Of a stretch of 64,000 nucleotides of DNA, positions 4,810 through 42,922 are shown one piece after another. Both the position numbers and the translations under genes were made by a program. The notes under the pieces are model-generated. The model was not told where the DNA came from. It was given only the letters and a program-made list of their open reading frames with translations, and did no database searches. The stretch's first letter is position 1. Each line of letters begins with the position of its first letter. The DNA lies in NCBI RefSeq assembly GCF_003334785.1, contig NZ_QOWV01000001.1; one strand, given 5' to 3'. The DNA comes from Escherichia coli (GTDB lineage: Bacteria > Pseudomonadota > Gammaproteobacteria > Enterobacterales > Enterobacteriaceae).

Positions 4810-5325
4810 TTACAGCAAAAGATAACCTTCATGGCGCAATAACCACTCTTTTCGCTGAACTCCGCCTGCATATCCGGTCATGGTGCCGTTTCGGCCAATA
4901 ACCCGATGGCAAGGTACGACGATGCTGATGGGATTCGATCCGTTTGCCGCACCAACGGCACGCGCCGCGCCAGGACGGCCCAATTGCTCAGCCAGTTGGC
5001 CGTAATGCATTACCTGCCCGCAGGGGATAGTGCGTAGTGTTTTCCAGACTTCGCGCTGAAATGGCGTCCCCCCCGTAGCAGTGGGAAGCGTATCAATAAT
5101 GCTAAGATTACCGGCAAAATATTCACGAAGCTTGTCGCTTAAACCGCCTGGATTGGTGGCAGAAATGCGCTCATAGCCTTCTTTGCGATAATGGATGTCC
5201 AGCAGCTGCACCATGCGTTCGCTGTACTCTTCCCATTCAACCGCCCGCAGGCGAAATTGCTCATCGCAAATCACCCACAGTGGACCCAGTGGCGTGGCAA
5301 TTTTTTCTTCAAGTAATCTCAGCAT
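4810..5325 (-). CDS. ogt: O6-alkylguanine-DNA alkyltransferase Ogt
   Basis: 171-aa ORF with PCHRV active-site motif ([11 protein letters not shown]). Confidence 0.9.
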
Positions 5326-5335
5326 CCGTTCTCTC

Positions 5336-6862
5336 TTAAGACAAACGTGGGTAAATACCCGGACCTATCGGCAGACCGACAAGATACCACGCCAGCAACA
5401 TCAGCAGCCATACCACCAAAAAGATAAGTGGATAGGGCAAGACTAACGAATAGTAAGTACCCAGTTTCGCGTCTGGTTTGTAGCGTTGCAGGAATCCAAG
5501 AAACAGTGGAACAAAAGGAGATACCGGCGCTAAAGGCAATACGGATGAGTCGGCAATACGAAAGAGGATTTGCGCAAATGCCGGGTGAAAGCCAAGTAGC
5601 ATAAACATTGGTACGAAAATGGGGGCAAGAATCGACCAGATTGCGGAACCGCTGGCAATAAACATGCATAAGAAAGAGGAAAGCAACGCCAGACCGACAA
5701 ACGCCGGGATGCCGCTAAGCCCTGAACTTTCCAGTATATCGGTCAGCCCCACGGCGATGAATTTCCCCATGTTGCTCCAGTTAAACATGGCGACAAATTG
5801 GGCGAGGGGAAAAACCATCACGATAAATCCCGCCATCTCTTTCATCGGTTCAATCATTAAATGCGGTAAATCCGCCTGACGTCGAATTGTGCGGGTAGCG
5901 ATGCCATAAGCCAGCGAGACAACAAAGAAAAAAAGAATGATCAGTGGCACGATACCTTTAATAAAGGGTGATGGCATCACGGTGTGATTAATCGGATCGC
6001 GCAATATCCCGTTTTGCGGGATCACCATCAGCGCAATCGCAGCAATAAAAAGTAGCGATACGACACCTGCTATGCGTAAACCAAAACGCTGACTTTCGGT
6101 CAATGTCTGCAGTTTCTCATCGCTGTTTCCCTGCCATTGACCTAACCGTGGCTCGATGATTTTGTCGGTTATCAGGCCGCCAACAATCGTCAGTACGACT
6201 ACGGAGCTGGCCATAAAATACCAGTTATCAATTACACTGACGTGCATTTGCGGATTGAACGCAGCTGCCGCTTCCGTGCTGATCCCCGACAGCAACACGT
6301 CGGTTGTGACAATCAGTAAATTAGCCGTAAAGCCGCAACCTACGCCTGCAATGGCAGCCAGTAAACCTGCAACTGGATGCCTGCCCACCGCCAGAAAAAT
6401 CAGCGCACCCATCGGTGGCATGATCACTAACGCCGCATCGGAAGAAATGTGGCTGAAAAAAGCAATAAACAGCACCATATAACTGGCGTAGCGGGCATTA
6501 ACATGCGATGCCATTTTAACCATTAGTGCTGGCAGTAAGCCGACGCGCTCCGCCAGACCGGCACCTAAAACCAGCGCCAGGATCGCACCAAGTGGAGCAA
6601 AACCGCTAAAGTTTTTAATAACATTGGGTAAAAACCAGTGTAATCCTTCCACACTGAGCAGGTTTTTCACCACGACCGGCGTACCATCGGTCGGGTTTTT
6701 CGCACTGACGCCAAAGGCCGACAAAATTGCCGTCGTCACCATGAGTACGATAATCAAATAGATAAAGAGCAGAAAAGGATGGGGAACCTTGTTACCAATT
6801 CTTTCGACCCAGCCATAGAGCTTCCCGGATTGGGAGGACGACGGTATGGATGACATACTCAT
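5336..6862 (-). CDS. abgT: p-Aminobenzoyl-glutamate transporter AbgT
   Basis: ORF 5336..6868, polytopic membrane protein; second ATG (6862) preferred because GAGGA sits at suitable spacing; about 508 aa. Confidence 0.9.
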
Positions 6863-6898: not shown

Positions 6899-8344
6899 TT
6901 ATTTTAAAGGTGACGGTGTCACGTTTTTCGGGATAGGGCAGTGATACGGTTGCGTGTCCGTTACTTGCTGATGCTCTTGTTGGCATTCTTGCAATAGCCC
7001 TGAATCAAGGAAGAGATTGACTGTGGTTGCTGCCATAGTTTTCGCCGCCAGCAGCATTCCTTTATGAGCAATAGATGTTCGCCCCTGGCTAACCAGTTGC
7101 CACGTATGTAGCGGTGTACCGACGGCAAAACAGGGGCTGAAACACTGGGCAACAGGCAGTTTCCAACTGACGTCGCCGACATCAGTCGATGCCGCAAGCA
7201 CGTTATCGGTGGCGGCATATGGAGCGACTTCATTCGCCAGTACCGTTTCACGATGACGTAGTGCAAAAACCTTGCCGTTTTCGCCACCGGTTGCGGCGAT
7301 ATTATTCAGACTGTTTTGCCGATCGTTGGAGGTGAGCGTAGCCTGAATTTGTTTCGCAAAAGCCAGTTCTTCGGAGTTCCATTCCGGGGTACCAAAATGG
7401 GATAGGGCCTGGTACATGGCATTTTCTAAGGTGCGATTCGGGAGATAACTGGAACAGGCTTTGTCGAAGCGGCATTCAACCGTGGTTTCGGTCATCAATG
7501 CCGCACCTTCGGCGATTTTGGCGACCCGATCATAAATATGCTGCACGTCGGTCATTTCGGGGGCGCGGATAAGATAAAGCACTTCTGCCTGCGCCTGGAC
7601 CACGTTGGGCGAGATCCCGCCGCTATTTGTGATGGCATAGTGTACGCGCGCTTTTTCAATAATATGTTCGTTGAGGAAGTTGGTGCCAGTGGTCATCAAC
7701 GTTACGGCATCAAGGGCGCTGCGTCCCAAATGAGGGGAATTCGCGGCATGTGCTGCGATCCCTTTAAAGCGCCATGATGCCTGAATGTTTGCCAGCGTGC
7801 GGGTATTGAACATACCGGCAAAGGCTTCCGGGTGCCAGGTGAGTGCCGCATCCACATCATCAAATACCCCCTCGCGAACCATGAACGTTTTACCCGAGCC
7901 GCCTTCTTCGCCAGGACAACCCTAAAAGCGCACCGTGCCGCCTTGCCCATATTGTTCCAGCCATTTCTTGACGGCTATTGCAGCGGCAAAGGCGGCGGTT
8001 CCCAGCAAATTGTGTCCGCAACCGTGACCATTTTCACCGGGCGTCACGGATGTAGGTTGCGCGCAACCTGCTTGCTGACTTAAACCTGCCAGGGCGTCAT
8101 ATTCTCCCAGCAGGGCGATAACCGGTTTGCCTTGACCAAACGAAGCAATAAAGGCATTTGGGATATTGCCTACGTTGCGGGTAACGGTGAAGCCTGCAGA
8201 TTCCAGCGCCGAAGCCAGATGCTCCGCTGACCAGAACTCTTCAAAACGTGTTTCTGGATGATCCCAGATTTGATCGGCAATATCGGTATAACGTTGGCGA
8301 TCGGCTTCAATCGCATCGTCGATAAAACGATAGATTTCCTGCAT
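6899..8344 (-). pseudogene. abgB: abgB (p-aminobenzoyl-glutamate hydrolase subunit B, M20 peptidase) interrupted by an in-frame TAG at 7922..7924
   Basis: ORFs 7922..8344 (140 aa, ends ...GGTVRF) and 6899..7882 (327 aa) are in the same frame; translating across the gap gives GTVRF-stop-GCPGEEGGSGKTF-MVREGV; total 140+1+13+327 = 481 codons, the length I recall for intact AbgB. Confidence 0.8.
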
Positions 8345-9654
8345 CAGATACCTCGCGTCCAGGGAAAATTGAGCGCGGTGCGCGCCAGCGTTTCGACGGC
8401 AATAGCGAGAACCTGCTCGTCAAAATCGAATTTTTCGTTGTGATGACCTGCCGCCAGCTGTGTGCCAAACACCACGTAGGAGGCTTGCCCTTGATGTTGC
8501 TGCACGCGGGCCATCATTAATGTGGCATCTTCGGAACCCGCAGGCGCTTCAACACGTTCAATGGCCTGATTGACCCCCGCGACCTGAGCCGCCTGACTTT
8601 GCAACCATGCGACCCATTGCGGCGAAGGAGAACTGGCGGTAGCTGCACCCATCAGACGAGTTTCAACGCCGACACCATACATGGTTGCTGCGCCCTGAAT
8701 CGCTTGTTGTGCACGGTCAAAAACATATTGATTAATGACGTCGCTGGCCCCGCGTGTTTCCACTTTCAGCAACGCCGAGGCAGGAACAACGTTACGACCG
8801 CTTCCTGCCTGCATAACGCCCACGTTTACTCTGGAAGCTCCTTCGCTGTGCGGGGCGATTGCATGCAGTGCAAGAGTGGCTTGTGCTGCCGCCAACAAGG
8901 CATTGTGACCGTCTTCTGGTTTTGCGCCTGCGTGAGCGGCGGTACCGGTGAAGTGCGCGTCAAATTTGGTGGTTGCCATAAAATTATCACTGCCGCACAC
9001 CACGGTGCCCGCAGGTACGCCAGTGCCAATGTGCACGGCAGTAAAATAATCAACATCATCTACGACACCTGCATCGACCATCGCCCGCGCGCCACGCGTA
9101 CCTTCCTCTGCAGGCTGAAAAATCAGTTTGATGACGCCATGTAGTCCGGACTCGAACTGTTTAAGGGTATGCGCCAGCCCAAGCCCAATGGCGGTATGTC
9201 CATCATGACCACAGGCATGCATCATTCCGGCGTTACATGACGCAAAACCGTCGCGGTAGGGGCGATGGCTGACATCCTGCTCTTCACTGAGATCCAGCGC
9301 GTCCATATCGACACGGAAAGCCATCACCGGACCGGGGCGACCGGTATCCAGGGTGGCGACGATACCAGTGAAACCACCTTCAAAAGCCGCAATCCATTGT
9401 GCTAGCGCACCCTGTTGACGAGCGCGCTCGAATTCGCGTTGTAGAGTGAATTCATCAGGTAATCCCATCCGGCTACTTTCATTAACTACTTCGCGACCCA
9501 GCGCCAGTGAATAGCCGAGCTGGTGCAATTCTTCCGCAACAAGGGTGGCGGTGCGGAATTCCACCCAGCCAGACTCTGCATAGTGATGAAAATCACGTCG
9601 CCAGTGCGATAATTTTGGGGCAAGCGAATTAACAAATTGATTCAAAGACTCCAT
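8344..9654 (-). CDS. abgA: p-Aminobenzoyl-glutamate hydrolase subunit A (M20 peptidase family)
   Basis: ORF 8344..9669; start placed at MESLNQF (436 aa); stop overlaps abgB start (ATGA). Confidence 0.9.
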   Translation of the reverse strand: MESLNQFVNSLAPKLSHWRRDFHHYAESGWVEFRTATLVAEELHQLGYSLALGREVVNESSRMGLPDEFTLQREFERARQQGALAQWIAAFEGGFTGIVATLDTGRPGPVMAFRVDMDALDLSEEQDVSHRPYRDGFASCNAGMMHACGHDGHTAIGLGLAHTLKQFESGLHGVIKLIFQPAEEGTRGARAMVDAGVVDDVDYFTAVHIGTGVPAGTVVCGSDNFMATTKFDAHFTGTAAHAGAKPEDGHNALLAAAQATLALHAIAPHSEGASRVNVGVMQAGSGRNVVPASALLKVETRGASDVINQYVFDRAQQAIQGAATMYGVGVETRLMGAATASSPSPQWVAWLQSQAAQVAGVNQAIERVEAPAGSEDATLMMARVQQHQGQASYVVFGTQLAAGHHNEKFDFDEQVLAIAVETLARTALNFPWTRGI

Positions 9655-9829: not shown

Positions 9830-10738
9830 ATGGCTTTTCAGGTAAAAATTCATCAAATTCGGGCTTTTGTTGAAGTGGCTCGTCAGGGCAGCATTCGCGG
9901 AGCGAGCCGAATGTTGAATATGTCGCAACCGGCACTGAGTAAATCTATTCAGGAGCTAGAAGAAGGGTTAGCGGCGCAACTCTTTTTTCGCCGTAGTAAA
10001 GGCGTGACGTTAACTGATGCCGGTGAAAGTTTTTATCAGCACGCCAGTCTAATTCTTGAAGAGCTGCGCGCAGCCCAAGAGGATATTCGCCAACGACAAG
10101 GGCAACTGGCAGGGCAGATTAATATCGGCATGGGGGCCAGTATTTCCCGCAGTCTGATGCCAGCTGTCATATCTCGTTTTCATCAGCAGCATCCGCAGGT
10201 AAAAGTACGCATTATGGAAGGGCAACTGGTGTCGATGATTAATGAATTGCGTCAGGGAGAATTGGATTTCACCATCAATACCTATTATCAGGGACCGTAC
10301 GACCACGAATTTACTTTTGAGAAATTACTGGAAAAGCAATTCGCGATCTTTTGCCGCCCGGGACACCCCGCCATTGGTGCCCGTTCGATCAAACAGTTAC
10401 TGGATTACAGCTGGACAATGCCGACGCCACACGGCAGCTACTACAAACAGTTGAGTGAATTGCTTGACGATCAGGCGCAAACGCCACAGGTCGGTGTAGT
10501 CTGCGAGACGTTCTCAGCCTGTATCAGTCTGGTGGCAAAAAGCGATTTTCTCAGCATACTGCCTGAAGAAATGGGCTGCGATCCCTTGCACGGACAGGGG
10601 CTGGTGATGTTGCCGGTTAGCGAAATTTTACCGAAAGCGGCCTATTATTTGATTCAGCGGCGTGATAGTCGCCAGACACCACTGACCGCGTCATTAATCA
10701 CGCAATTCCGGCGAGAATGCGGCTATCTGCAAAGTTAA
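9830..10738 (+). CDS. abgR: LysR-type transcriptional regulator AbgR
   Basis: 302-aa ORF, N-terminal LysR HTH, divergent from abgABT. Confidence 0.9.
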   Translation: MAFQVKIHQIRAFVEVARQGSIRGASRMLNMSQPALSKSIQELEEGLAAQLFFRRSKGVTLTDAGESFYQHASLILEELRAAQEDIRQRQGQLAGQINIGMGASISRSLMPAVISRFHQQHPQVKVRIMEGQLVSMINELRQGELDFTINTYYQGPYDHEFTFEKLLEKQFAIFCRPGHPAIGARSIKQLLDYSWTMPTPHGSYYKQLSELLDDQAQTPQVGVVCETFSACISLVAKSDFLSILPEEMGCDPLHGQGLVMLPVSEILPKAAYYLIQRRDSRQTPLTASLITQFRRECGYLQS

Positions 10739-10744
10739 AACTGC

Positions 10745-10840
10745 ATAAAAAAATAGAGTCTGTCGACATCCGCCAGACTCTACAGTACACACAGCAGTGC
10801 ATCCGCGTCTTAAATCCGGCATTGTCTCCTCTGCGCCGGT
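10745..10840 (-). ncRNA. mcaS: Small regulatory RNA McaS (IsrA)
   Basis: Minus-strand sequence ACCGGCGCAGAGGAGACAAUGCCGGAUUUAAGACGCGGAUGCACUGCUGUGUGUACUGUAGAGUCUGGCGGAUGUCGACAGACUCUAUUUUUUUAU matches my recollection of McaS, ending in hairpin plus U7; lies between abgR and smrA. Confidence 0.8.
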
Positions 10841-13117: not shown

Positions 13118-14122
<1,005 letters not shown>

Positions 14123-14217: not shown

Positions 14218-14339
14218 GCAGGTGAATGCAACGTCAAGCGATGGGCGTTGCGCTCCATATTGTCTTACTTCCTTTTTTGAATTACTGCATAGCACAATTG
14301 ATTCGTACGACGCCGACTTTGATGAGTCGGCTTTTTTTT
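14218..14339 (+). ncRNA. fnrS: FNR-activated small RNA FnrS
   Basis: Sequence GCAGGUGAAUGCAACGUCAAGCGAUGGGCG...GACGCCGACUUUGAUGAGUCGGCUUUUUUUU matches my recollection of FnrS; terminator hairpin plus U8; between zntB and dbpA. Confidence 0.85.
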
Positions 14340-16101: not shown

Positions 16102-17037
16102 TTATTTCACTTCAACCACATTCAGCCGTAACTCATCCAACTGATTTTCATCTTCTTCTGGCTGCCAGCACGCCGGTTGTAGTGGGATCTCTTCGCGATC
16201 AAACGCCAGATCACCCCCGTTAACCACTTCAGAACCGTGGGTGATGCCTTTGAAATCGAACAGGTTGGTATCGCACAGATGCGACGGCACCACATTCTGC
16301 ATCGCGCTGAACATCGTCTCGATACGCCCTGGATAACGTTTATCCCAGTCACGCAACATGTCAGCAATCACCTGACGTTGCAGGTTAGGCTGTGAACCGC
16401 ACAGGTTGCACGGAATAATCGGGAACGCTTTTGCATCGGCAAATCGCTGAATATCTTTCTCGCGGCAGTAGGCCAGCGGACGAATAACGATATGTTTGCC
16501 ATCATCGCTCATCAGTTTCGGAGGCATACCTTTCATCTTACCGCCGTAGAACATATTTAAGAACAACGTTTGCAGGATATCGTCACGATGGTGACCCAAC
16601 GCGATCTTCGTCGCCCCCAGTTCCGTTGCGGTACGATAAAGGATACCGCGACGAAGGCGAGAACACAGTGAGCAAGTGGTTTTGCCCTCTGGAATCTTCT
16701 CTTTCACGATACCGTAAGTATTCTCTTCAACAATCTTGTACTCAACGCCCAGCTTTTCAAGATACTCGGGCAGAACGTGTTCCGGGAAGCCCGGTTGCTT
16801 TTGATCGAGGTTAACAGCCACCAGCGAAAAATTGATTGGCGCGCTTTGCTGCAAATTGCGCAGAATCTCCAGCATGGTATAGCTGTCTTTACCCCCGGAG
16901 AGGCAAACCATGATGCGATCGCCTTCTTCAATCATATTGAAGTCAGCAATGGCTTCGCCCACGTTACGACGCAGACGTTTTTGTAATTTGTTCAGGTTGT
17001 ATTGTTCTTTCTTACTAATTTCTTGATTTTGCGACAT
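16102..17037 (-). CDS. ttcA: tRNA 2-thiocytidine(32) synthetase TtcA
   Basis: 311-aa ORF with PP-loop SGGKDS motif and CxxC pairs; uninterrupted. Confidence 0.9.
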
Positions 17038-18922: not shown

Positions 18923-19149
18923 TGAATAAATCCTTTAGTTATTTTATTTGCCTTTTATCCCCATTTCGGGGAGTGAAAACATCCTAAAGGAGAAGTTCAG
19001 TTAGCCGATAAATATCATTTGTTACGCCTTAAGTAAAACCTTAATCAAATAATTCCTCTGAAATGATAATAAGTCTGGTGAATGTATCGAAGATAATACA
19101 TACAAAATAAAAATTATACTTTTAATTTGCTATACGTTATTCTGCGCGG

Positions 19150-19258
19150 GTTATATGCCTTTATTGTCACAGATTTTATTTTCTGTTGGGCCATTGCATT
19201 GCCACTGATTTTCCAACATATAAAAAGACAAGCCCGAACAGTCGTCCGGGCTTTTTTT
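19150..19258 (+). ncRNA. micC: Small regulatory RNA MicC
   Basis: GUUAUAUGCCUUUAUUGUCACAGAUUUUAUUUUCUGUUGGGCC...AAGCCCGAACAGUCGUCCGGGCUUUUUUU matches my recollection of MicC; divergent from ompN; its terminator hairpin (19229..19258) is flanked by A-run and T-run and so may also terminate ydbK on the other strand. Confidence 0.85.
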
Positions 19259-19288
19259 TTAGAATTGGATAATCCTTATCCAGAGCAT

Positions 19289-28407: not shown

Positions 28408-29312
28408 TAGCGGAATTTACGTCGATACTCGCCTGGCGTCATCCCAAAGCGTTGCTTAAATACCGTTGAAAAATGACTCTGGTCAGAAAATCCCCAATGA
28501 AAGCCGATGCCTGCCAGTTTTTCATCATCTGCGGCATGGCGAATCGCATCTGCACAAAAATCGAGACGACGGTTACGAATATATTGCGCGACTACCAAAC
28601 CTTTATCGGCAAACATTCGGTACAAACTACGTACTGACATACCTGTCTCTCCGGCTATCCACTCCGGGCGTAATATCTCTTCGCGAATATTATCGTCTAT
28701 CAACGTAACCACTTTTTGAAACTGACGTTCACGACGAGGTTGAACAGATTCCCGCTGATGAAGTACCGGGCGCAGCAGACACACCATCGCCTGTAGCGCA
28801 GCTTCACTTTCTGTTTCAGAAAGTGCCGGATTATTCATGCTCTCCTGTAACAGGCGATGACTGAGTTGCACCATGGGTAAGTCAGCGTCCAGTCTTTCTG
28901 CGCAGACAGGTTTTTGATGGGGAAAATATTGTTCCAGCAGAGTGCGTGGCAAAAGTAATGAAATCTGTTTAGAAGACTCCTGCCAGTAAAGCGAACAGGG
29001 GCGTGAGGCATCGAGTAACGTAATATCGCCAGCGCCAATCTGCACCTGACGCTCATCCTGCTCCATTATTGCCTGACCACTAAGCTGAAAAACGGTGTAA
29101 AACCAGGCATCGTCGCTGCCTTTTACTTCCTGCCAGGTGCGGGATAAATTCACCCCGCTGGTTGTCACGGTACTCAGCTTTAGTCCTTTGGCAAAATGCG
29201 TGTCCAGTACACCCGTGTAACGCTCAGTCAGCAGGCGTCCGGTAAAATTTCCGCATACCTGATTGATTTGGGAAAGCCATTGCTGAAACTCATTATCCAC
29301 TGCGGGGTTCAT
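28407..29312 (-). CDS. feaR: AraC-family activator FeaR (phenylethylamine/phenylacetaldehyde catabolism)
   Basis: 301-aa ORF with C-terminal AraC-type HTH; divergent from feaB. Confidence 0.9.
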   Translation of the reverse strand: MNPAVDNEFQQWLSQINQVCGNFTGRLLTERYTGVLDTHFAKGLKLSTVTTSGVNLSRTWQEVKGSDDAWFYTVFQLSGQAIMEQDERQVQIGAGDITLLDASRPCSLYWQESSKQISLLLPRTLLEQYFPHQKPVCAERLDADLPMVQLSHRLLQESMNNPALSETESEAALQAMVCLLRPVLHQRESVQPRRERQFQKVVTLIDDNIREEILRPEWIAGETGMSVRSLYRMFADKGLVVAQYIRNRRLDFCADAIRHAADDEKLAGIGFHWGFSDQSHFSTVFKQRFGMTPGEYRRKFR

Positions 29313-33625: not shown

Positions 33626-35671
33626 TTAATCGACAAAATCACCGTGCTGCCTGGCCACCAGCGTCAGAATTGAATACAGCGCCACCGGGGTTTGATGCTG
33701 ATTGAATACCTCTACAGCCCATTCCACCACACCTGTTGGTTTTTCTTCTGCGCTACGCTGTTTTTTCAGCGTCTTGCGCTTACAGGTGAGACGCACCTGG
33801 ATGGTATCGCCTGGCTTTACGGGTTCGATAAAACGCAAGCTTTCCAGCCCGTAGTTAGCAATGACCGGACCGACACCGGCATCGACAAACAGACCCGCAG
33901 CCGCAGAAAGCACAAAATACCCATGCACCACCCGCTCACCGAAAATAGATTCGGCAGCAGCAATCCTATCCATATGTGCATAGAAATGATCGCCGCTGAG
34001 GCAAGCAAAGTTAACAATATCGGCCTCTGTCATTGTGCGGCGGGGAGTCAACAGGCTGTCGCCTGGTTGTAGCTCCTCAAAATATTTGCGGAACGGATGA
34101 ATACGATCTTCTTCGACTTTCGCACCGCGCACCCACTGTTTACTGATAGCGGCAAGCATCGTCGGACTACCCTGAACAGCGGTTCGCTGCATGTAATGTT
34201 TCACCGCTCGTAAACCGCCTAATTCTTCACCGCCTCCTGCGCGACCAGGCCCACCATGTACCAGTTGTGGCAGTGGGGAGCCATGCCCGGTGGATTCTTT
34301 TGCCGACTCTTCATTGAGGATCTGAATTCGCCCATGCGTACGTGCCGCGTCGGCAATAAACTGACGCGCAATTTGCGGATCAGCCGTCACCAGCGTTCCC
34401 GCAAGGCTACCGCCGCCTGCACAAGCCAGTTGCAGAGCATGTCGCTGGTTTTGTGCTGGCATCAGCGTTGCGACAGGGCCAAAGGCTTCTGTTGCATGTA
34501 CCGCCGGTGTTTCATCCGGCTGCGGACAGTACAATAAGGTTGGCGGGAAGAAGGCACCCGCAGCAGATAAATCCGCCTGACCACCGAGGCGAATCTCGCA
34601 TCCTGCAGCCAGCAATATGTTCACTTTTTCCTGCACATCGGCACGCTGCTCAGCATTTACCAGTGCGCCCATTTTCACGCCTTCCTGAGCAGGATCACCG
34701 ACCACGACTTTCTGTAATCGCGCAACCAGAGCATCACTGACAGCATTAACCAATGCCTGCGGCACAATAATCCGCCGGATTGCCGTACATTTTTGCCCGG
34801 CTTTTGTGGTCATCTCACGCACAACTTCACGAATAAACAGCGCAAACTCCGGTTGATCCGGGGTGACATCTTCGCCCAGTACGCAGCAGTTCAGGGAATC
34901 AGCTTCCATAGTGAAGGGGATAGATTTGGCGACGATATTTGGCTGAACTCGCAGCATCTGTCCGGTCGCCGCTGACCCCGTGAAAGTCACCACATCCTGG
35001 CTGTCCAGATGATCCAACAAGTCGCCAGCACTACCGCAGATCAGACTAATTGCGCCTTCGGGAACAAGACCACTATCGACAATTGATTTCACCATCGCCT
35101 GAGTCAGTTGGGCCGTCGCGGTAGCTGGTTTGATGATGGCTGGCATTCCGCCCAGCCACGTTGGTGCCAGCTTTTCCAGCATTCCCCAGCAGGGGAAGTT
35201 AAAGGCGTTAATATGCACTGCCACGCCTGACTTTGAGGTCAGTAAATGGCGCGCGGCAAATCCACCTTCTTTCGATAAGGGGATCAATTCATCTTCCGGC
35301 CACAGCGTATCGTCAGGCAGCTCCCGGCTACCGAGGCTGGCGTAAGTAAATAACGTCCCAATGCCACCTTCAATATCAACCCAACTGTCTGCCCGCGTTG
35401 CGCCTGTTTGCGCAGAAAGAGCATAGAAACGCTCTTTTTCACTCAGCAGATGTTTAGCGACCGCTTTAAGCATCGCCGCACGTTCGATAAAGGTCATAGC
35501 GCGAAGGGCGGGGGCACCTTTTTCAATGGCAAACTGGCGGGCAGCCGCCATATCAAGACCTTCACTGGTCACTTCCCATAACGCCTCGCCGCTAATAGCG
35601 TGGTGAATCAAACGGCTACGGCCCCGGCCAGACTGCCAGGTACCGGATAAGAAACTGGCTAACTGCTGCAT
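33626..35671 (-). CDS. paaZ: Bifunctional PaaZ (oxepin-CoA hydrolase / 3-oxo-5,6-dehydrosuberyl-CoA semialdehyde dehydrogenase)
   Basis: 681-aa ORF; N-terminal ALDH domain and C-terminal MaoC-like hotdog domain. Confidence 0.9.
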
Positions 35672-35713
35672 CGCTACTCTCCAGATGTTTCACATTTCTG
35701 TTGCTAATAGTTA

Positions 35714-35728
35714 AATCGCGAATCATAA
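35714..35728 (-). promoter_or_regulatory. PaaX-operator-like half-site in the paaZ promoter
   Basis: Minus strand reads TTTATGATTCGCGAT, matching the WWTRTGATTCGYGWT motif I recall for PaaX. Confidence 0.4.
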
Positions 35729-35899
35729 AAAGCAAGGGATCTTTTAACGAAATGTTAACTATGCGATCTGTATAGCAACTGCGGAAAACATTAATGCACT
35801 GATAAATAATGATTTATAAAAATAGGGTGCGAAATCCGTCACAGTTCAAACATACAAAATTTGTGATTTTACTTAACTATTGTGTAACTTTCATAAAAC

Positions 35900-35941
35900 A
35901 ATGTGATTCGTGTTTTTAATTAATTCACGAAAACTGGAATC
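35900..35941 (+). promoter_or_regulatory. PaaX-operator-like site in the paaA promoter (TGATTC-N27-GAATC)
   Basis: AATGTGATTCGTGTT at 35900..35914 matches the recalled PaaX motif; inverted GAATC 27 bp downstream; lies just upstream of the paaA start. Confidence 0.45.
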
Positions 35942-35955
35942 GTAAAGGTGATGAC

Positions 35956-36885
35956 GTGACCCAAGAAGAACGCTTTGAGCAACGGATAGCCCAGGAAACG
36001 GCTATCGAGCCACAGGACTGGATGCCCGATGCTTACCGAAAGACATTGATCCGCCAGATTGGGCAGCATGCGCACTCCGAGATTGTTGGTATGTTGCCTG
36101 AAGGTAACTGGATCACTCGCGCACCAACCTTGCGGCGTAAAGCCATTCTGTTGGCCAAAGTGCAGGATGAAGCCGGTCATGGTCTGTATCTCTATAGCGC
36201 CGCCGAAACACTGGGCTGCGCCAGAGAAGACATCTACCAAAAAATGCTCGACGGACGGATGAAATATTCCTCCATCTTTAATTATCCGACATTGAGTTGG
36301 GCTGATATCGGTGTTATCGGCTGGCTGGTGGATGGCGCAGCGATCGTCAATCAGGTGGCGTTATGCCGCACTTCTTATGGCCCGTATGCCAGAGCAATGG
36401 TGAAAATCTGCAAAGAAGAGAGTTTTCACCAGCGTCAGGGGTTTGAAGCCTGCATGGCACTGGCGCAGGGCAGCGAAGCTCAAAAGCAGATGTTGCAAGA
36501 CGCCATTAACCGTTTCTGGTGGCCAGCCTTAATGATGTTCGGGCCAAACGATGATAACTCGCCAAACAGCGCCAGAAGTCTCACCTGGAAAATCAAACGT
36601 TTCACCAACGACGAACTCCGCCAGCGTTTCGTGGATAACACCGTTCCACAGGTTGAAATGCTCGGTATGACCGTTCCTGACCCGGATCTGCATTTTGACA
36701 CTGAAAGCGGTCACTACCGCTTTGGTGAGATCGACTGGCAGGAGTTTAACGAAGTAATTAACGGTCGCGGAATTTGTAATCAGGAGAGGCTCGACGCCAA
36801 ACGTAAAGCCTGGGAAGAAGGTACCTGGGTACGGGAAGCAGCGCTGGCCCATGCACAAAAACAACATGCCCGTAAGGTCGCATAA
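35956..36885 (+). CDS. paaA: Phenylacetyl-CoA 1,2-epoxidase subunit A
   Basis: 309-aa ORF with GTG start ([10 protein letters not shown]...); first gene of paaABCDE. Confidence 0.9.
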
Positions 36886-36896
36886 GGAGATTCAAA

Positions 36897-37184
36897 ATGA
36901 GTAATGTTTACTGGCCGTTATACGAAGTTTTCGTGCGTGGCAAACAGGGCTTATCACACCGCCATGTTGGCAGTTTACATGCTGCCGATGAGCGGATGGC
37001 ACTGGAAAATGCCCGTGATGCTTACACCCGTCGTAGCGAAGGATGTTCAATTTGGGTGGTGAAGGCGAGTGAAATTGTTGCCTCGCAACCGGAAGAACGC
37101 GGTGAATTTTTTGATCCGGCTGAAAGCAAGGTCTATCGCCATCCAACGTTTTACACCATCCCTGATGGCATTGAGCACATGTGA
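36897..37184 (+). CDS. paaB: Phenylacetyl-CoA epoxidase subunit B
   Basis: 95-aa ORF, operon position. Confidence 0.9.
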   Translation: MSNVYWPLYEVFVRGKQGLSHRHVGSLHAADERMALENARDAYTRRSEGCSIWVVKASEIVASQPEERGEFFDPAESKVYRHPTFYTIPDGIEHM

Positions 37185-37192
37185 GGTCGGAA

Positions 37193-37939
37193 ATGAATCA
37201 GTTAACGGCTTACACCTTGCGCCTGGGCGATAACTGCCTGGTGCTCTCCCAGCGGTTGGGTGAATGGTGCGGTCACGCACCGGAACTGGAAATCGATCTC
37301 GCACTGGCAAACATTGGCCTCGATTTATTAGGTCAGGCACGCAACTTCTTATCGTATGCCGCTGAATTAGCGGGAGAAGGCGATGAAGATACCCTGGCCT
37401 TCACCCGAGACGAGCGCCAGTTCAGCAACTTATTGTTGGTTGAACAACCAAACGGCAATTTTGCCGACACCATTGCACGCCAGTATTTCATCGATGCATG
37501 GCATGTGGCGCTCTTTACCCGTCTGATGGAAAGCCGTGATCCGCAACTGGCGGCGATTTCTGCCAAAGCAATTAAAGAAGCGCGCTATCACCTGCGTTTT
37601 AGTCGTGGCTGGCTGGAGCGACTGGGCAATGGTACTGACGTATCAGGGCAAAAGATGCAGCAGGCCATCAACAAGTTGTGGCGTTTTACCGCCGAACTGT
37701 TCGATGCCGACGAGATTGATATTGCACTGAGTGAAGAGGGTATTGCGGTTGATCCACGCACTTTACGCGCAGCGTGGGAAGCCGAAGTTTTTGCCGGGAT
37801 CAACGAAGCCACATTGAACGTACCGCAAGAGCAGGCGTATCGCACTGGCGGTAAAAAAGGACTGCATACCGAACACCTTGGACCCATGCTGGCAGAAATG
37901 CAGTATCTCCAGCGTGTCTTGCCCGGTCAGCAATGGTAA
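37193..37939 (+). CDS. paaC: Phenylacetyl-CoA epoxidase subunit C
   Basis: ORF 37181..37939; start at MNQLTAYTLRLG (248 aa) after GAGG. Confidence 0.9.
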   Translation: MNQLTAYTLRLGDNCLVLSQRLGEWCGHAPELEIDLALANIGLDLLGQARNFLSYAAELAGEGDEDTLAFTRDERQFSNLLLVEQPNGNFADTIARQYFIDAWHVALFTRLMESRDPQLAAISAKAIKEARYHLRFSRGWLERLGNGTDVSGQKMQQAINKLWRFTAELFDADEIDIALSEEGIAVDPRTLRAAWEAEVFAGINEATLNVPQEQAYRTGGKKGLHTEHLGPMLAEMQYLQRVLPGQQW

Positions 37940-37953
37940 CAGAGGAGATGGGT

Positions 37954-38451
37954 ATGCAACGTCTGGCCACCATTGCACCGCCACAGGTTCATGAGATATG
38001 GGCGCTACTCAGCCAGATCCCGGACCCGGAGATCCCGGTGCTGACCATTACTGATTTAGGCATGGTGCGTAATGTGACACAGATGGGAGAAGGATGGGTG
38101 ATCGGCTTTACGCCGACATATTCCGGTTGTCCGGCAACGGAACATTTGATTGGCGCGATACGTGAGGCAATGACAACCAACGGGTTTACCCCCGTTCAGG
38201 TTGTGCTGCAACTCGACCCGGCATGGACCACCGACTGGATGACCCCCGATGCCCGTGAGCGTCTGCGAGAGTATGGCATTAGCCCGCCCGCCGGACACAG
38301 TTGCCATGCCCATTTGCCGCCAGAAGTACGTTGCCCGCGCTGCGCCAGCGTCCATACCACACTTATCAGTGAATTTGGTTCCACGGCCTGCAAAGCATTG
38401 TACCGCTGCGATAGTTGCCGCGAACCTTTCGATTATTTCAAATGTATTTGA
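37954..38451 (+). CDS. paaD: Phenylacetyl-CoA epoxidase assembly protein PaaD
   Basis: ORF 37933..38451; start at MQRLATIAPP (165 aa) after GAGGAG. Confidence 0.9.
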   Translation: MQRLATIAPPQVHEIWALLSQIPDPEIPVLTITDLGMVRNVTQMGEGWVIGFTPTYSGCPATEHLIGAIREAMTTNGFTPVQVVLQLDPAWTTDWMTPDARERLREYGISPPAGHSCHAHLPPEVRCPRCASVHTTLISEFGSTACKALYRCDSCREPFDYFKCI

Positions 38452-38458
38452 GGATGCC

Positions 38459-39529
38459 ATGACAACGTTTCATTCCTTAACAGTGGCAAAAGTCGAGTCG
38501 GAAACCCGTGATGCGGTGACCATTACCTTTGCGGTGCCCCAGCCTTTGCAGGAGGCGTATCGCTTTCGCCCCGGTCAACATTTGACCTTAAAAGCCAGCT
38601 TTGATGGTGAAGAATTACGCCGTTGTTACTCCATTTGCCGCAGCTATCTGCCTGGCGAAATTAGTGTGGCGGTGAAAGCCATTGAAGGCGGACGTTTCTC
38701 CCGCTATGCCCGCGAACACATCCGCCAGGGTATGACGCTGGAGGTCATGGTGCCGCAGGGGCATTTCGGCTATCAGCCGCAGGCCGAACGCCAGGGGCGC
38801 TATCTGGCAATTGCAGCAGGATCAGGTATTACGCCAATGCTGGCGATTATCGCCACCACTTTACAAACCGAGCCTGAAAGTCAGTTCACCCTGATCTACG
38901 GTAACCGTACCAGCCAGAGCATGATGTTTCGCCAGGCACTGGCAGACCTGAAAGACAAATATCCTCAGCGTTTACAGTTGTTGTGCATTTTCAGTCAGGA
39001 AACCCTCGACAGCGATCTGCTTCACGGGCGTATTGACGGTGAAAAATTACAGTCACTTGGGGCCTCGCTCATTAATTTTCGTCTTTATGATGAGGCATTT
39101 ATTTGTGGTCCGGCGGCGATGATGGATGACGCGGAAACCGCCTTAAAAGCACTGGGAATGCCAGATAAAACCATTCATCTGGAGCGGTTTAATACGCCTG
39201 GCACGCGCGTCAAACGTAGCGTTAACGTGCAAAGTGACGGACAAAAAGTGACTGTACGTCAGGATGGGCGGGATCGGGAAATCGTGCTTAATGCCGACGA
39301 TGAAAGCATTCTCGATGCGGCATTGCGCCAGGGGGCGGATCTGCCCTATGCCTGCAAAGGCGGCGTCTGTGCGACCTGCAAATGCAAAGTGCTGCGTGGC
39401 AAAGTGGCGATGGAAACCAATTACAGTCTGGAACCGGATGAACTGGCCGCAGGTTATGTGTTGAGTTGCCAGGCACTGCCGCTGACCAGCGATGTGGTGG
39501 TTGACTTTGACGCGAAGGGGATGGCATGA
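38459..39529 (+). CDS. paaE: Phenylacetyl-CoA epoxidase reductase subunit PaaE (FNR-like domain plus 2Fe-2S ferredoxin)
   Basis: ORF 38249..39529; start at MTTFHSLTVAK (356 aa); C-terminal CxxxxCxxC...C ferredoxin motif (CKGGVCATCKC). Confidence 0.9.
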   Translation: MTTFHSLTVAKVESETRDAVTITFAVPQPLQEAYRFRPGQHLTLKASFDGEELRRCYSICRSYLPGEISVAVKAIEGGRFSRYAREHIRQGMTLEVMVPQGHFGYQPQAERQGRYLAIAAGSGITPMLAIIATTLQTEPESQFTLIYGNRTSQSMMFRQALADLKDKYPQRLQLLCIFSQETLDSDLLHGRIDGEKLQSLGASLINFRLYDEAFICGPAAMMDDAETALKALGMPDKTIHLERFNTPGTRVKRSVNVQSDGQKVTVRQDGRDREIVLNADDESILDAALRQGADLPYACKGGVCATCKCKVLRGKVAMETNYSLEPDELAAGYVLSCQALPLTSDVVVDFDAKGMA

Positions 39530-40293
39530 GCGAACTGATCGTCAGCCGTCAGCAACGAGTATTGTTGCTGACCCTTAACCGTCCCGCCGCACGTAATGCG
39601 CTAAATAATGCCCTGCTGATGCAACTGGTAAATGAACTGGAAGCTGCGGCTACCGATACCAGCATTTCGGTCTGTGTGATTACCGGTAATGCACGCTTTT
39701 TTGCCGCTGGGGCCGATCTCAACGAAATGGCAGAAAAAGATCTCGCGGCCACCTTAAACGATACACGTCCGCAGCTATGGGCGCGATTGCAGGCCTTTAA
39801 TAAACCACTTATCGCAGCCGTCAATGGTTACGCGCTTGGGGCGGGTTGCGAACTGGCATTGTTGTGCGATGTGGTGGTTGCCGGAGAGAACGCGCGTTTT
39901 GGGTTGCCGGAAATCACTCTCGGCATCATGCCTGGCGCAGGCGGAACGCAACGTTTAATCCGTAGTGTCGGTAAATCGTTAGCCAGCAAAATGGTGCTGA
40001 GCGGAGAAAGTATCACCGCTCAGCAAGCACAGCAGGCCGGGCTGGTTAGCGACGTCTTCCCCAGCGATTTAACCCTCGAATACGCCTTACAGCTGGCATC
40101 GAAAATGGCACGTCACTCGCCGCTGGCCTTACAAGCGGCAAAGCAAGCGCTGCGCCAGTCGCAGGAAGTGGCTTTGCAAGCCGGACTTGCCCAGGAGCGA
40201 CAGTTATTCACCTTGCTGGCGGCAACAGAAGATCGTCATGAAGGCATCTCCGCTTTCTTACAAAAACGCACGCCCGACTTTAAAGGACGCTAA
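39526..40293 (+). CDS. paaF: 2,3-Dehydroadipyl-CoA hydratase (enoyl-CoA hydratase family)
   Basis: 255-aa ORF, crotonase fold; start overlaps paaE stop. Confidence 0.9.
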   Translation: MSELIVSRQQRVLLLTLNRPAARNALNNALLMQLVNELEAAATDTSISVCVITGNARFFAAGADLNEMAEKDLAATLNDTRPQLWARLQAFNKPLIAAVNGYALGAGCELALLCDVVVAGENARFGLPEITLGIMPGAGGTQRLIRSVGKSLASKMVLSGESITAQQAQQAGLVSDVFPSDLTLEYALQLASKMARHSPLALQAAKQALRQSQEVALQAGLAQERQLFTLLAATEDRHEGISAFLQKRTPDFKGR

Positions 40294-41081
40294 TGATGGA
40301 ATTCATCCTCAGTCATGTAGAAAAGGGCGTGATGACACTAACGCTCAACCGCCCGGAACGCCTGAACAGTTTTAATGATGAGATGCACGCACAACTGGCA
40401 GAGTGCCTGAAACAGGTCGAGCGCGACGACACTATCCGTTGCCTGTTACTTACAGGTGCCGGGCGCGGATTTTGTGCTGGTCAGGATCTTAACGATCGTA
40501 ACGTTGATCCCACAGGCCCCGCACCGGATTTAGGGATGTCAGTTGAACGTTTCTATAACCCACTGGTACGTCGCCTGGCAAAACTGCCAAAACCGGTGAT
40601 CTGTGCAGTCAATGGCGTGGCGGCAGGGGCAGGCGCAACACTGGCACTGGGGGGCGACATCGTTATTGCTGCCCGTTCAGCAAAATTCGTCATGGCGTTT
40701 AGTAAGTTAGGCTTAATACCCGATTGCGGTGGAACCTGGTTACTGCCACGCGTTGCCGGACGAGCGCGCGCCATGGGGCTGGCACTGCTGGGGAATCAAC
40801 TGAGTGCTGAACAGGCGCACGAATGGGGGATGATCTGGCAGGTTGTTGATGATGAAACGCTGGCAGATACCGCGCAACAGCTGGCACGGCATCTGGCGAC
40901 ACAACCGACATTTGGTCTTGGACTTATCAAGCAAGCGATAAATAGCGCTGAAACCAATACGCTCGATACGCAACTGGATCTGGAACGTGACTATCAGCGA
41001 CTTGCCGGACGGAGCGCAGATTATCGTGAAGGTGTCAGTGCGTTCCTGGCTAAACGCTCACCGCAGTTCACGGGGAAATAG
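40293..41081 (+). CDS. paaG: 1,2-Epoxyphenylacetyl-CoA isomerase (crotonase family)
   Basis: 262-aa ORF; start overlaps paaF stop (TAATG). Confidence 0.9.
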   Translation: MMEFILSHVEKGVMTLTLNRPERLNSFNDEMHAQLAECLKQVERDDTIRCLLLTGAGRGFCAGQDLNDRNVDPTGPAPDLGMSVERFYNPLVRRLAKLPKPVICAVNGVAAGAGATLALGGDIVIAARSAKFVMAFSKLGLIPDCGGTWLLPRVAGRARAMGLALLGNQLSAEQAHEWGMIWQVVDDETLADTAQQLARHLATQPTFGLGLIKQAINSAETNTLDTQLDLERDYQRLAGRSADYREGVSAFLAKRSPQFTGK

Positions 41082-41082
41082 C

Positions 41083-42510
41083 ATGATGATAAATGTGCAA
41101 ACTGTGGCAGTGATTGGGAGCGGCACCATGGGGGCAGGCATTGCTGAAGTTGCTGCCAGTCATGGACACCAGGTTTTACTGTATGACATTTCTGCTGAAG
41201 CGCTGACCCGCGCAATCGACGGGATACACGCGCGGCTAAATTCACGCGTGACGCGGGGAAAACTGACTGCTGAAACCTGTGAACGCACATTGAAACGCCT
41301 GATCCCGGTGACCGATATTCACGCGCTGGCAGCTGCGGACCTGGTCATTGAAGCGGCGTCTGAACGTCTGGAAGTCAAAAAAGCGCTCTTTGCACAGCTG
41401 GCGGAAGTTTGCCCGCCACAAACGCTATTGACCACTAACACTTCGTCAATCTCTATAACCGCGATTGCTGCGGAGATAAAAAATCCTGAACGTGTTGCGG
41501 GGCTGCATTTTTTTAACCCGGCACCGGTGATGAAGTTGGTGGAGGTGGTCAGTGGGCTGGCAACGGCGGCGGAAGTTGTTGAGCAGTTGTGTGAACTAAC
41601 GTTGAGTTGGGGTAAGCAGCCTGTGCGCTGTCATTCGACTCCTGGATTTATCGTTAACCGTGTTGCGCGTCCTTATTATTCCGAGGCCTGGCGGGCACTG
41701 GAAGAGCAGGTTGCTGCACCAGAAGTGATTGACGCTGCACTTCGCGATGGCGCTGGTTTCCCGATGGGGCCGCTGGAATTAACCGATCTGATTGGTCAGG
41801 ACGTCAATTTTGCTGTCACCTGTTCGGTGTTTAACGCTTTCTGGCAGGAGCGTCGTTTTTTACCTTCGCTGGTGCAACAGGAACTGGTGATTGGTGGACG
41901 GTTGGGCAAGAAAAGTGGGCTGGGCGTGTACGACTGGCGCGCGGAACGTGAGGCAGTTGTTGGCCTGGAAGCGGTAAGCGACAGTTTTAGCCCAATGAAA
42001 GTAGAAAAGAAAAGTGACGGTGTCACGGAAATTGACGATGTTTTATTGATTGAGACACAAGGCGAGACGGCACAGGCGCTGGCAATACGACTGGCACGCC
42101 CGGTGGTAGTGATCGATAAAATGGCGGGCAAGGTGGTGACCATTGCTGCTGCAGCGGTGAACCCGGACTCAGCGACCCGCAAGGCCATTTATTACCTGCA
42201 ACAGCAGGGCAAAACAGTGCTGCAAATTGCAGATTACCCAGGAATGCTGATTTGGCGAACGGTAGCAATGATCATCAATGAAGCCCTTGATGCGCTTCAA
42301 AAAGGCGTGGCCTCTGAACAGGATATCGATACCGCCATGCGTCTTGGGGTGAATTATCCATATGGCCCACTTGCCTGGGGAGCGCAACTTGGCTGGCAGC
42401 GAATATTAAGGCTCCTTGAAAATCTACAGCATCACTATGGCGAAGAACGCTATCGCCCATGTTCATTGCTGCGCCAACGGGCGCTTCTGGAGAGCGGTTA
42501 TGAGTCATAA
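41083..42510 (+). CDS. paaH: 3-Hydroxyadipyl-CoA dehydrogenase
   Basis: ORF 40987..42510; start at MMINVQTVAVIGSGTMGAGIA (Rossmann GxGxxG), 475 aa. Confidence 0.9.
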   Translation: MMINVQTVAVIGSGTMGAGIAEVAASHGHQVLLYDISAEALTRAIDGIHARLNSRVTRGKLTAETCERTLKRLIPVTDIHALAAADLVIEAASERLEVKKALFAQLAEVCPPQTLLTTNTSSISITAIAAEIKNPERVAGLHFFNPAPVMKLVEVVSGLATAAEVVEQLCELTLSWGKQPVRCHSTPGFIVNRVARPYYSEAWRALEEQVAAPEVIDAALRDGAGFPMGPLELTDLIGQDVNFAVTCSVFNAFWQERRFLPSLVQQELVIGGRLGKKSGLGVYDWRAEREAVVGLEAVSDSFSPMKVEKKSDGVTEIDDVLLIETQGETAQALAIRLARPVVVIDKMAGKVVTIAAAAVNPDSATRKAIYYLQQQGKTVLQIADYPGMLIWRTVAMIINEALDALQKGVASEQDIDTAMRLGVNYPYGPLAWGAQLGWQRILRLLENLQHHYGEERYRPCSLLRQRALLESGYES

Positions 42511-42922
42511 GGCCTGGCAAAATGCCCATGCAATGTATGAGAACGATGCCTGCGCCAAAGCGCTTGGCATCGACATTATCTCAATGGATGAAGGCTTTGC
42601 TGTAGTGACCATGACCGTCACTGCACAAATGCTTAACGGTCATCAAAGTTGCCACGGCGGGCAGCTATTTTCACTGGCTGATACTGCCTTTGCCTACGCC
42701 TGCAATAGCCAGGGGCTGGCAGCCGTCGCTTCTGCCTGCACGATTGATTTTTTGCGTCCAGGCTTTGCCGGAGACACCTTAACTGCTACTGCGCAGGTAC
42801 GTCATCAGGGCAAGCAAACCGGTGTTTACGACATCGAAATTGTTAACCAACAACAAAAAACGGTTGCGCTGTTTCGCGGTAAATCTCACCGCATCGGCGG
42901 CACCATTACAGGAGAAGCCTGA
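42500..42922 (+). CDS. paaI: Hotdog-fold thioesterase PaaI
   Basis: ORF 42416..42922; start at MSHKAWQNAH (140 aa), overlapping paaH end. Confidence 0.85.
   Translation: MSHKAWQNAHAMYENDACAKALGIDIISMDEGFAVVTMTVTAQMLNGHQSCHGGQLFSLADTAFAYACNSQGLAAVASACTIDFLRPGFAGDTLTATAQVRHQGKQTGVYDIEIVNQQQKTVALFRGKSHRIGGTITGEA

Follow-up and report, generated by a model that had tools for sequence, protein, structure and literature searches.

The p-aminobenzoyl-glutamate (PABA-Glu) hydrolase of Escherichia coli is a Mn2+-requiring α2β2 heterotetramer of AbgA and AbgB, and its physiological significance is described as unclear by the authors who characterised it (PMC5082436). The closest described counterpart of the gene studied here is K-12 AbgB (b1337, UniProt P76052, RefSeq WP_001156451.1), encoded where abgR diverges from abgA-abgB-abgT-ogt. 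We see the same synteny, and the same length of 481 amino acids upon read-through, in the 64,000-nt stretch of E. coli DNA that was analysed in this work, referred to below as the window. The closest solved homologues are M20D amidohydrolases, namely HmrA from S. aureus (3RAM, E = 3.7e-34) and the Xaa-Arg dipeptidase PM20D2 (7YH4, E = 5.7e-27), both of which are colinear with AbgB through the site of the internal stop described below. They have the GHxCGHN and GxPxEE(G/D)G motifs in common with AbgB, and carry Leu at the position equivalent to Tyr141. They are distant proteins with other substrates, and were used only to place conserved residues.

In the window, abgB is interrupted by an in-frame amber codon at position 141, and this is a real, lineage-specific nonsense mutation that makes the gene a pseudogene. 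The features of the locus are as follows, in window coordinates.

6899..8344, minus strand: abgB, p-aminobenzoyl-glutamate hydrolase subunit B, 481 codons plus stop, a pseudogene through its internal amber codon
7922..7924, minus strand: the amber TAG, codon 141 of abgB, ancestrally TAT (Tyr), with the mutated base at window position 7922
7922..8344, minus strand: N-terminal fragment ORF, 140 aa plus the TAG, with its ATG at 8344
7883..7921, minus strand: gap between the two ORFs, 39 nt or 13 sense codons (GCPGEEGGSGKTF), belonging to neither ORF and holding the GxPxEE motif (E146/E147)
6899..7882, minus strand: C-terminal fragment ORF, 327 aa, starting at Met155 (ATG at 7882) and ending with TAA at 6901..6899

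Translation of positions 8344..6899 in one frame gives 481 codons, among which the sole internal stop is codon 141 (140 + 1 + 13 + 327). A first-pass annotation had described exactly this arrangement, with same-frame ORFs of 140 and 327 aa, a TAG at 7922..7924, 13 intervening codons and a read-through product of 481 codons, and its coordinates and arithmetic are exact. When compared base by base with abgB of K-12 MG1655, the window copy is identical at 1,445 of 1,446 nt (99.93%), and the only difference is a T>G change at gene nucleotide 423 (A>C on the plus strand at 7922) that converts Tyr141 from TAT to TAG. The first-pass annotation had assumed a Tyr codon in the reference, and MG1655 abgB does have TAT at codon 141; its proposal of a single-base nonsense change that cuts AbgB after residue 140 is likewise borne out by this one-base difference and by the translation. 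The TAG pattern is not a product of chance, since a known gene of 481 codons is present here at 99.93% identity and is interrupted by one stop only. Across the whole of abgT-abgB-abgA-abgR, the T>G at nucleotide 423 is also the only difference from VE-F10, PEC399 and AST198. It had further been considered that AbgB might naturally end at this point and be followed by a separate downstream gene, but the nearest genomes carry a single 481-aa RefSeq protein, WP_001156451.1.

The identity of the gene is well supported. With Tyr141 restored, the read-through translation scores 445 bits against the NCBIfam profile TIGR01891 (amidohydrolase, M20D; cut-off 153.75), covering profile positions 1-366 of 366, and it also matches the Pfam families Peptidase_M20 and M20_dimer. 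The two fragments divide the same profile between them, the 140-aa ORF covering positions 1-119 and the 327-aa ORF positions 135-366. The position of the gene is orthologous, as gene order and coordinates are those seen in annotated genomes (abgR / abgA-abgB-abgT).

The frequency of the allele was assessed in a comparison set of 5,426 complete RefSeq E. coli genomes. The abgB segment was matched in 4,202 of these, and abgB is absent from 1,224 (23%). When 81 nt with the TAG at their centre were used as a query, 4,187 genomes matched but no match was exact, and alignment to reference abgB sequences likewise revealed no complete genome with TAG, while the solved homologues ran colinearly through the stop site. 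Unless some genome combines the TAG with a second nearby SNP, no complete RefSeq E. coli genome thus carries the allele. A public assembly collection (Logan contigs) was then queried for exact matches to the 140-aa and 327-aa products. The 140 + 327 split was found in contigs of separate runs, three of which (SRR10357255, ERR1948969 and SRR1840539) were read at the nucleotide level, with five further similar places. Over 18.3, 14.4 and 11.7 kb, respectively, these three contigs match the window at 100% identity, T>G included. The 327-aa fragment is on record in NCBI, JGI and ENA, and gene callers predict exactly this product. Most of the 82 contigs matching the 140-aa product (among them loci L007-L013) just end at codon 140, an artefact of looking up an exact product, and these were discarded as evidence for the allele. 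We found no relevant literature on abgB as a pseudogene or on the run accessions. The kind of event is already known, and public archives already contain this allele.

The position of the stop is informative with regard to function. The GHGCGHN motif occupies AbgB residues 106-112 and is kept in the 140-aa fragment. The conserved GCPGEEGG motif (residues 142-149, including E146/E147) lies between the TAG and the Met155 ATG, and is found in neither fragment. The stop at codon 141 thus parts the two motifs, and no single chain in an uninterrupted frame holds both C109/H111 and E146/E147. In M20 enzymes, the Glu-Glu pair provides the general base and a metal ligand. AbgB E146 has been aligned with the Zn ligand E176 of CPG2 (PMC5082436, Table 1). 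Translation would stop after residue 140, giving a product that has neither the Glu-Glu motif nor the dimerisation domain and is missing the C-terminal half of the catalytic domain. A product re-initiated at Met155 would lack both the Cys/His motif and the Glu-Glu motif. Re-initiation there, if any, should be weak, since no good Shine-Dalgarno sequence was found 5-10 nt upstream of the ATG at 7882. Low-level natural read-through of UAG would still yield a trace of full-length AbgB. As the enzyme is an AbgA/AbgB heterotetramer, loss of AbgB should abolish PABA-Glu hydrolase. Judged from the sequence, and barring suppression of the TAG, AbgB should be non-functional and the AbgA2B2 hydrolase consequently lost, and the strain would then be unable to cleave PABA-Glu.

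The genes surrounding abgB are intact, and are arranged as follows.

8344..9654, minus strand: abgA, hydrolase subunit A, intact, its stop overlapping the abgB start (ATGA), with no differences from AST198 or VE-F10
5336..6862, minus strand: abgT, p-aminobenzoyl-glutamate transporter, intact, 36 nt downstream of abgB
4810..5325, minus strand: ogt, starting 10 nt past the abgT stop
9830..10738, plus strand: abgR, LysR-type regulator, divergent and intact

Because abgT is preceded by a Shine-Dalgarno sequence of its own (GAGG, 8 nt before the ATG), only transcriptional (Rho) polarity is at issue for this gene. Some 1 kb of mRNA is left untranslated past the TAG. As heuristic indications only, 78-nt windows lying 450 and about 970 nt beyond the stop have C/G ratios of 2.2 and 3.4, and the strongest C-rich, G-poor stretch of the operon spans the 3′ end of abgB and the abgB-abgT spacer, just upstream of abgT. 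Rho-dependent polarity on abgT is plausible, and its expression may be lowered by such polarity over the untranslated stretch. The ogt gene may be co-transcribed with the abg genes, in which case it could be the last gene within reach of any polarity. A promoter and terminator scan of the operon gave no more sites than in shuffled sequence and no minus-strand internal promoter, a result that says nothing on polarity. The abgA, abgT and abgR genes do not differ from their intact counterparts in AST198 and VE-F10 and show no secondary decay, which indicates that the Y141* event is young.

The wider window gives the genomic background of the allele. No exact match to the window exists among the 5,426 complete E. 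coli genomes, and the best complete-genome matches differ by 3, about 4 and 1 mismatches over window positions 1-25000, 25001-50000 and 50001-64000, respectively. The nearest complete genomes come from wild isolates (humans, swine and other sources), with about one differing site per 8 kb. The rest of the window is ordinary chromosome, with a few scattered SNPs and every other large gene intact, and we see no sign of a degraded or error-rich assembly. As supE/supF alleles are common in K-12 laboratory strains, a K-12 laboratory origin was considered, and was rejected: the window is without the Rac prophage, without the IS5 element by ynaJ, and has a few SNPs relative to MG1655. At the position of the IS5 that separates ynaJ and ynaI in K-12 MG1655, the alignments meet directly, overlapping by 4 bp at 2328-2331. 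At the vacant Rac site (17014-17037), K-12 homology stops at the 5′ end of ttcA, where three positions (17014, 17015 and 17022) have SNPs, and uspF-ompN come immediately after.

Several further differences were recorded in the window. A non-synonymous SNP in zntB, S304L (TCA>TTA, window position 14049), is private with respect to K-12, VE-F10, PEC399 and AST198. It is common to all three Logan contigs with the abgB amber codon, and the two changes together mark the clone. Relative to AST198, the window also shows non-synonymous differences in feaR (T122P and L85Q, at 28949 and 29059) and in paaH (G78D, at 41315). Because AST198 has newly assigned accessions (WP_464288181/2) for these genes, it is probably AST198, and not the window, that has the private changes. 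The cluster for phenylacetate degradation (paaZ, paaA-K, paaX and paaY) is complete at 34922-42798; in VE-F10 and PEC399, otherwise the closest genomes, about 7.9 kb is deleted and paaZ′ is joined to paaI′. Positions 47421-53189 on the plus strand hold an intact ORF of 1,922 aa for a YdbA/BigA-type autotransporter, which is one 294-bp (98-aa) tandem repeat unit shorter than its 2,020-aa counterpart in AST198. By BLAST, the repeat units are about 89% identical at a 294-bp offset around 48075-48750. In K-12, ydbA is disrupted by an IS element. Just outside the start of the window, ycjY is split into 233 aa + 71 aa in the SRR10357255 contig of the same lineage (L016, 19742-20687), and its RefSeq annotation in the nearest complete genomes (L002/L003, 9140-10141) reads 'frameshifted; internal stop', making it a second nearby pseudogene, common to relatives. 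Three small RNAs were identified by Rfam with scores above the gathering score, all in their expected K-12 positions.

14218-14335, plus strand: FnrS sRNA, 134.8 bits, between zntB and ynaL
19147-19267, plus strand: MicC sRNA, 125 bits, between ompN and nifJ
10745-10840, minus strand: McaS/IsrA sRNA, 118.4 bits, just downstream of abgR

Other null alleles of abgB were sought by looking up three C-terminal fragment products in public assemblies. At least 10 other independent alleles were found, including E48*, W128*, Q131*, Q134*, S150* (in two runs), a TG insertion at nt 362, deltaT418, deltaT426 and insertions in metagenome contigs; the lesions also take in an insertion of 31 bp and one replacement spanning about 100 bp. 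The neighbouring abgA (436 aa) and abgT (508 aa) genes are intact in each (loci L014, L015, L017-L020, L022 and L025-L030). Some of these alleles, those in low-coverage metagenome contigs (L017-L019), may be errors, and L019 in particular, at about 4x coverage, has seven clustered substitutions that could be an assembly error. An apparent lesion hotspot at codons 120-155 was rejected as detection bias, as only lesions just upstream of the chosen start codon yield the product that was searched for.

Taken together, the data indicate that the window very probably carries a genuine, recent, lineage-specific loss-of-function allele of abgB, an instance of ordinary gene loss that is most likely neutral. 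A T>G transversion changed Tyr141 from TAT to amber in a wild-type (non-K-12) E. coli lineage, and pseudogenisation most likely proceeded by neutral drift. Neutrality is assumed here, and drift is taken as the most likely course because the operon is dispensable and its physiological role unclear. One competing explanation, also offered by the first-pass annotation, is a sequencing or assembly error, in which the true codon is TAT and a G was miscalled in one assembly. The difference is indeed only one base, and no complete RefSeq genome has the TAG, but the same G is found in the independently assembled contigs of three runs, where the private zntB S304L change is also present, and the 327-aa fragment is recorded in three archives. 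With three independently deposited runs showing the same allele on an identical background, we consider an error effectively excluded. A miscall in a single assembly being excluded, the amber codon is therefore a clonally inherited, fixed allele of a lineage sequenced on several occasions. It is also highly improbable that abgB is still functional, with full-length AbgB made through an amber suppressor tRNA (supE/supF-like) or efficient read-through of UAG. Marshall and Levy are said to have described, in 1980, coliforms carrying amber suppressors among natural isolates, and such natural suppressors together with the absence of decay from the rest of the operon would be in keeping with retained function. 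A recent mutation, however, explains the absent decay equally well, and nothing positive points to a suppressor, the tRNA scan having returned no tRNA genes within the 64-kb window. Basal read-through of UAG in non-suppressor E. coli is far below 10%. Programmed recoding, whether by read-through or by insertion of Sec or Pyl, finds no support either, as the stop is not conserved: none of the 4,187 genomes has the exact TAG 81-mer, and the homologues have Leu. A stop that is found in no E. coli beyond this lineage is not a programmed recoding site.

A different view of the same loss is that it is adaptive, with inactivation of the hydrolase repeatedly selected while abgA and abgT are kept, for example if AbgAB were costly or affected folate or antifolate metabolism. 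The recurrence of independent nulls, each with intact abgA and abgT, is what such selection would produce. However, the search in effect covered E. coli assemblies by the hundreds of thousands, a scale at which a few nulls are expected for any dispensable gene. The clustering of lesions reflects the detection bias of the search method, intact neighbours are expected for young mutations, and most of the alleles occur in few samples only. We therefore regard an adaptive origin as very unlikely. Considered jointly, there is a slim chance that abgB loss is recurrently selected or that the lineage has a natural amber suppressor keeping AbgB functional. If recurrent selection did prove true, the abgB nulls that leave abgA and abgT intact would be a mark of convergent adaptation in the salvage of folate catabolites.

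Under the preferred reading of ordinary gene loss, the practical consequences mainly concern annotation. The abgB gene in this strain should be annotated as a pseudogene with an internal stop and not as two coding sequences; in some public records each fragment appears as an 'aminobenzoyl-glutamate utilization protein B' CDS. Together with zntB S304L, the T>G at 7922 offers a handy clonal marker for the lineage, and the strain should be treated as AbgB-negative in work on folate or PABA-Glu salvage. Beyond annotation, the abgB amber codon is of very little consequence.

In comparison with known systems, the allele is one more case in a recurring pattern of abgB loss, a pattern consistent with an operon whose physiological role is unclear. 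The other abgB nulls lead to the same outcome, a split or truncated abgB, but they arose through different mutations in different backgrounds, and so represent independent events. The closest functional counterpart, K-12 AbgB, differs at codon 141, where it has TAT and the window copy has TAG, with a product that ends at residue 140.
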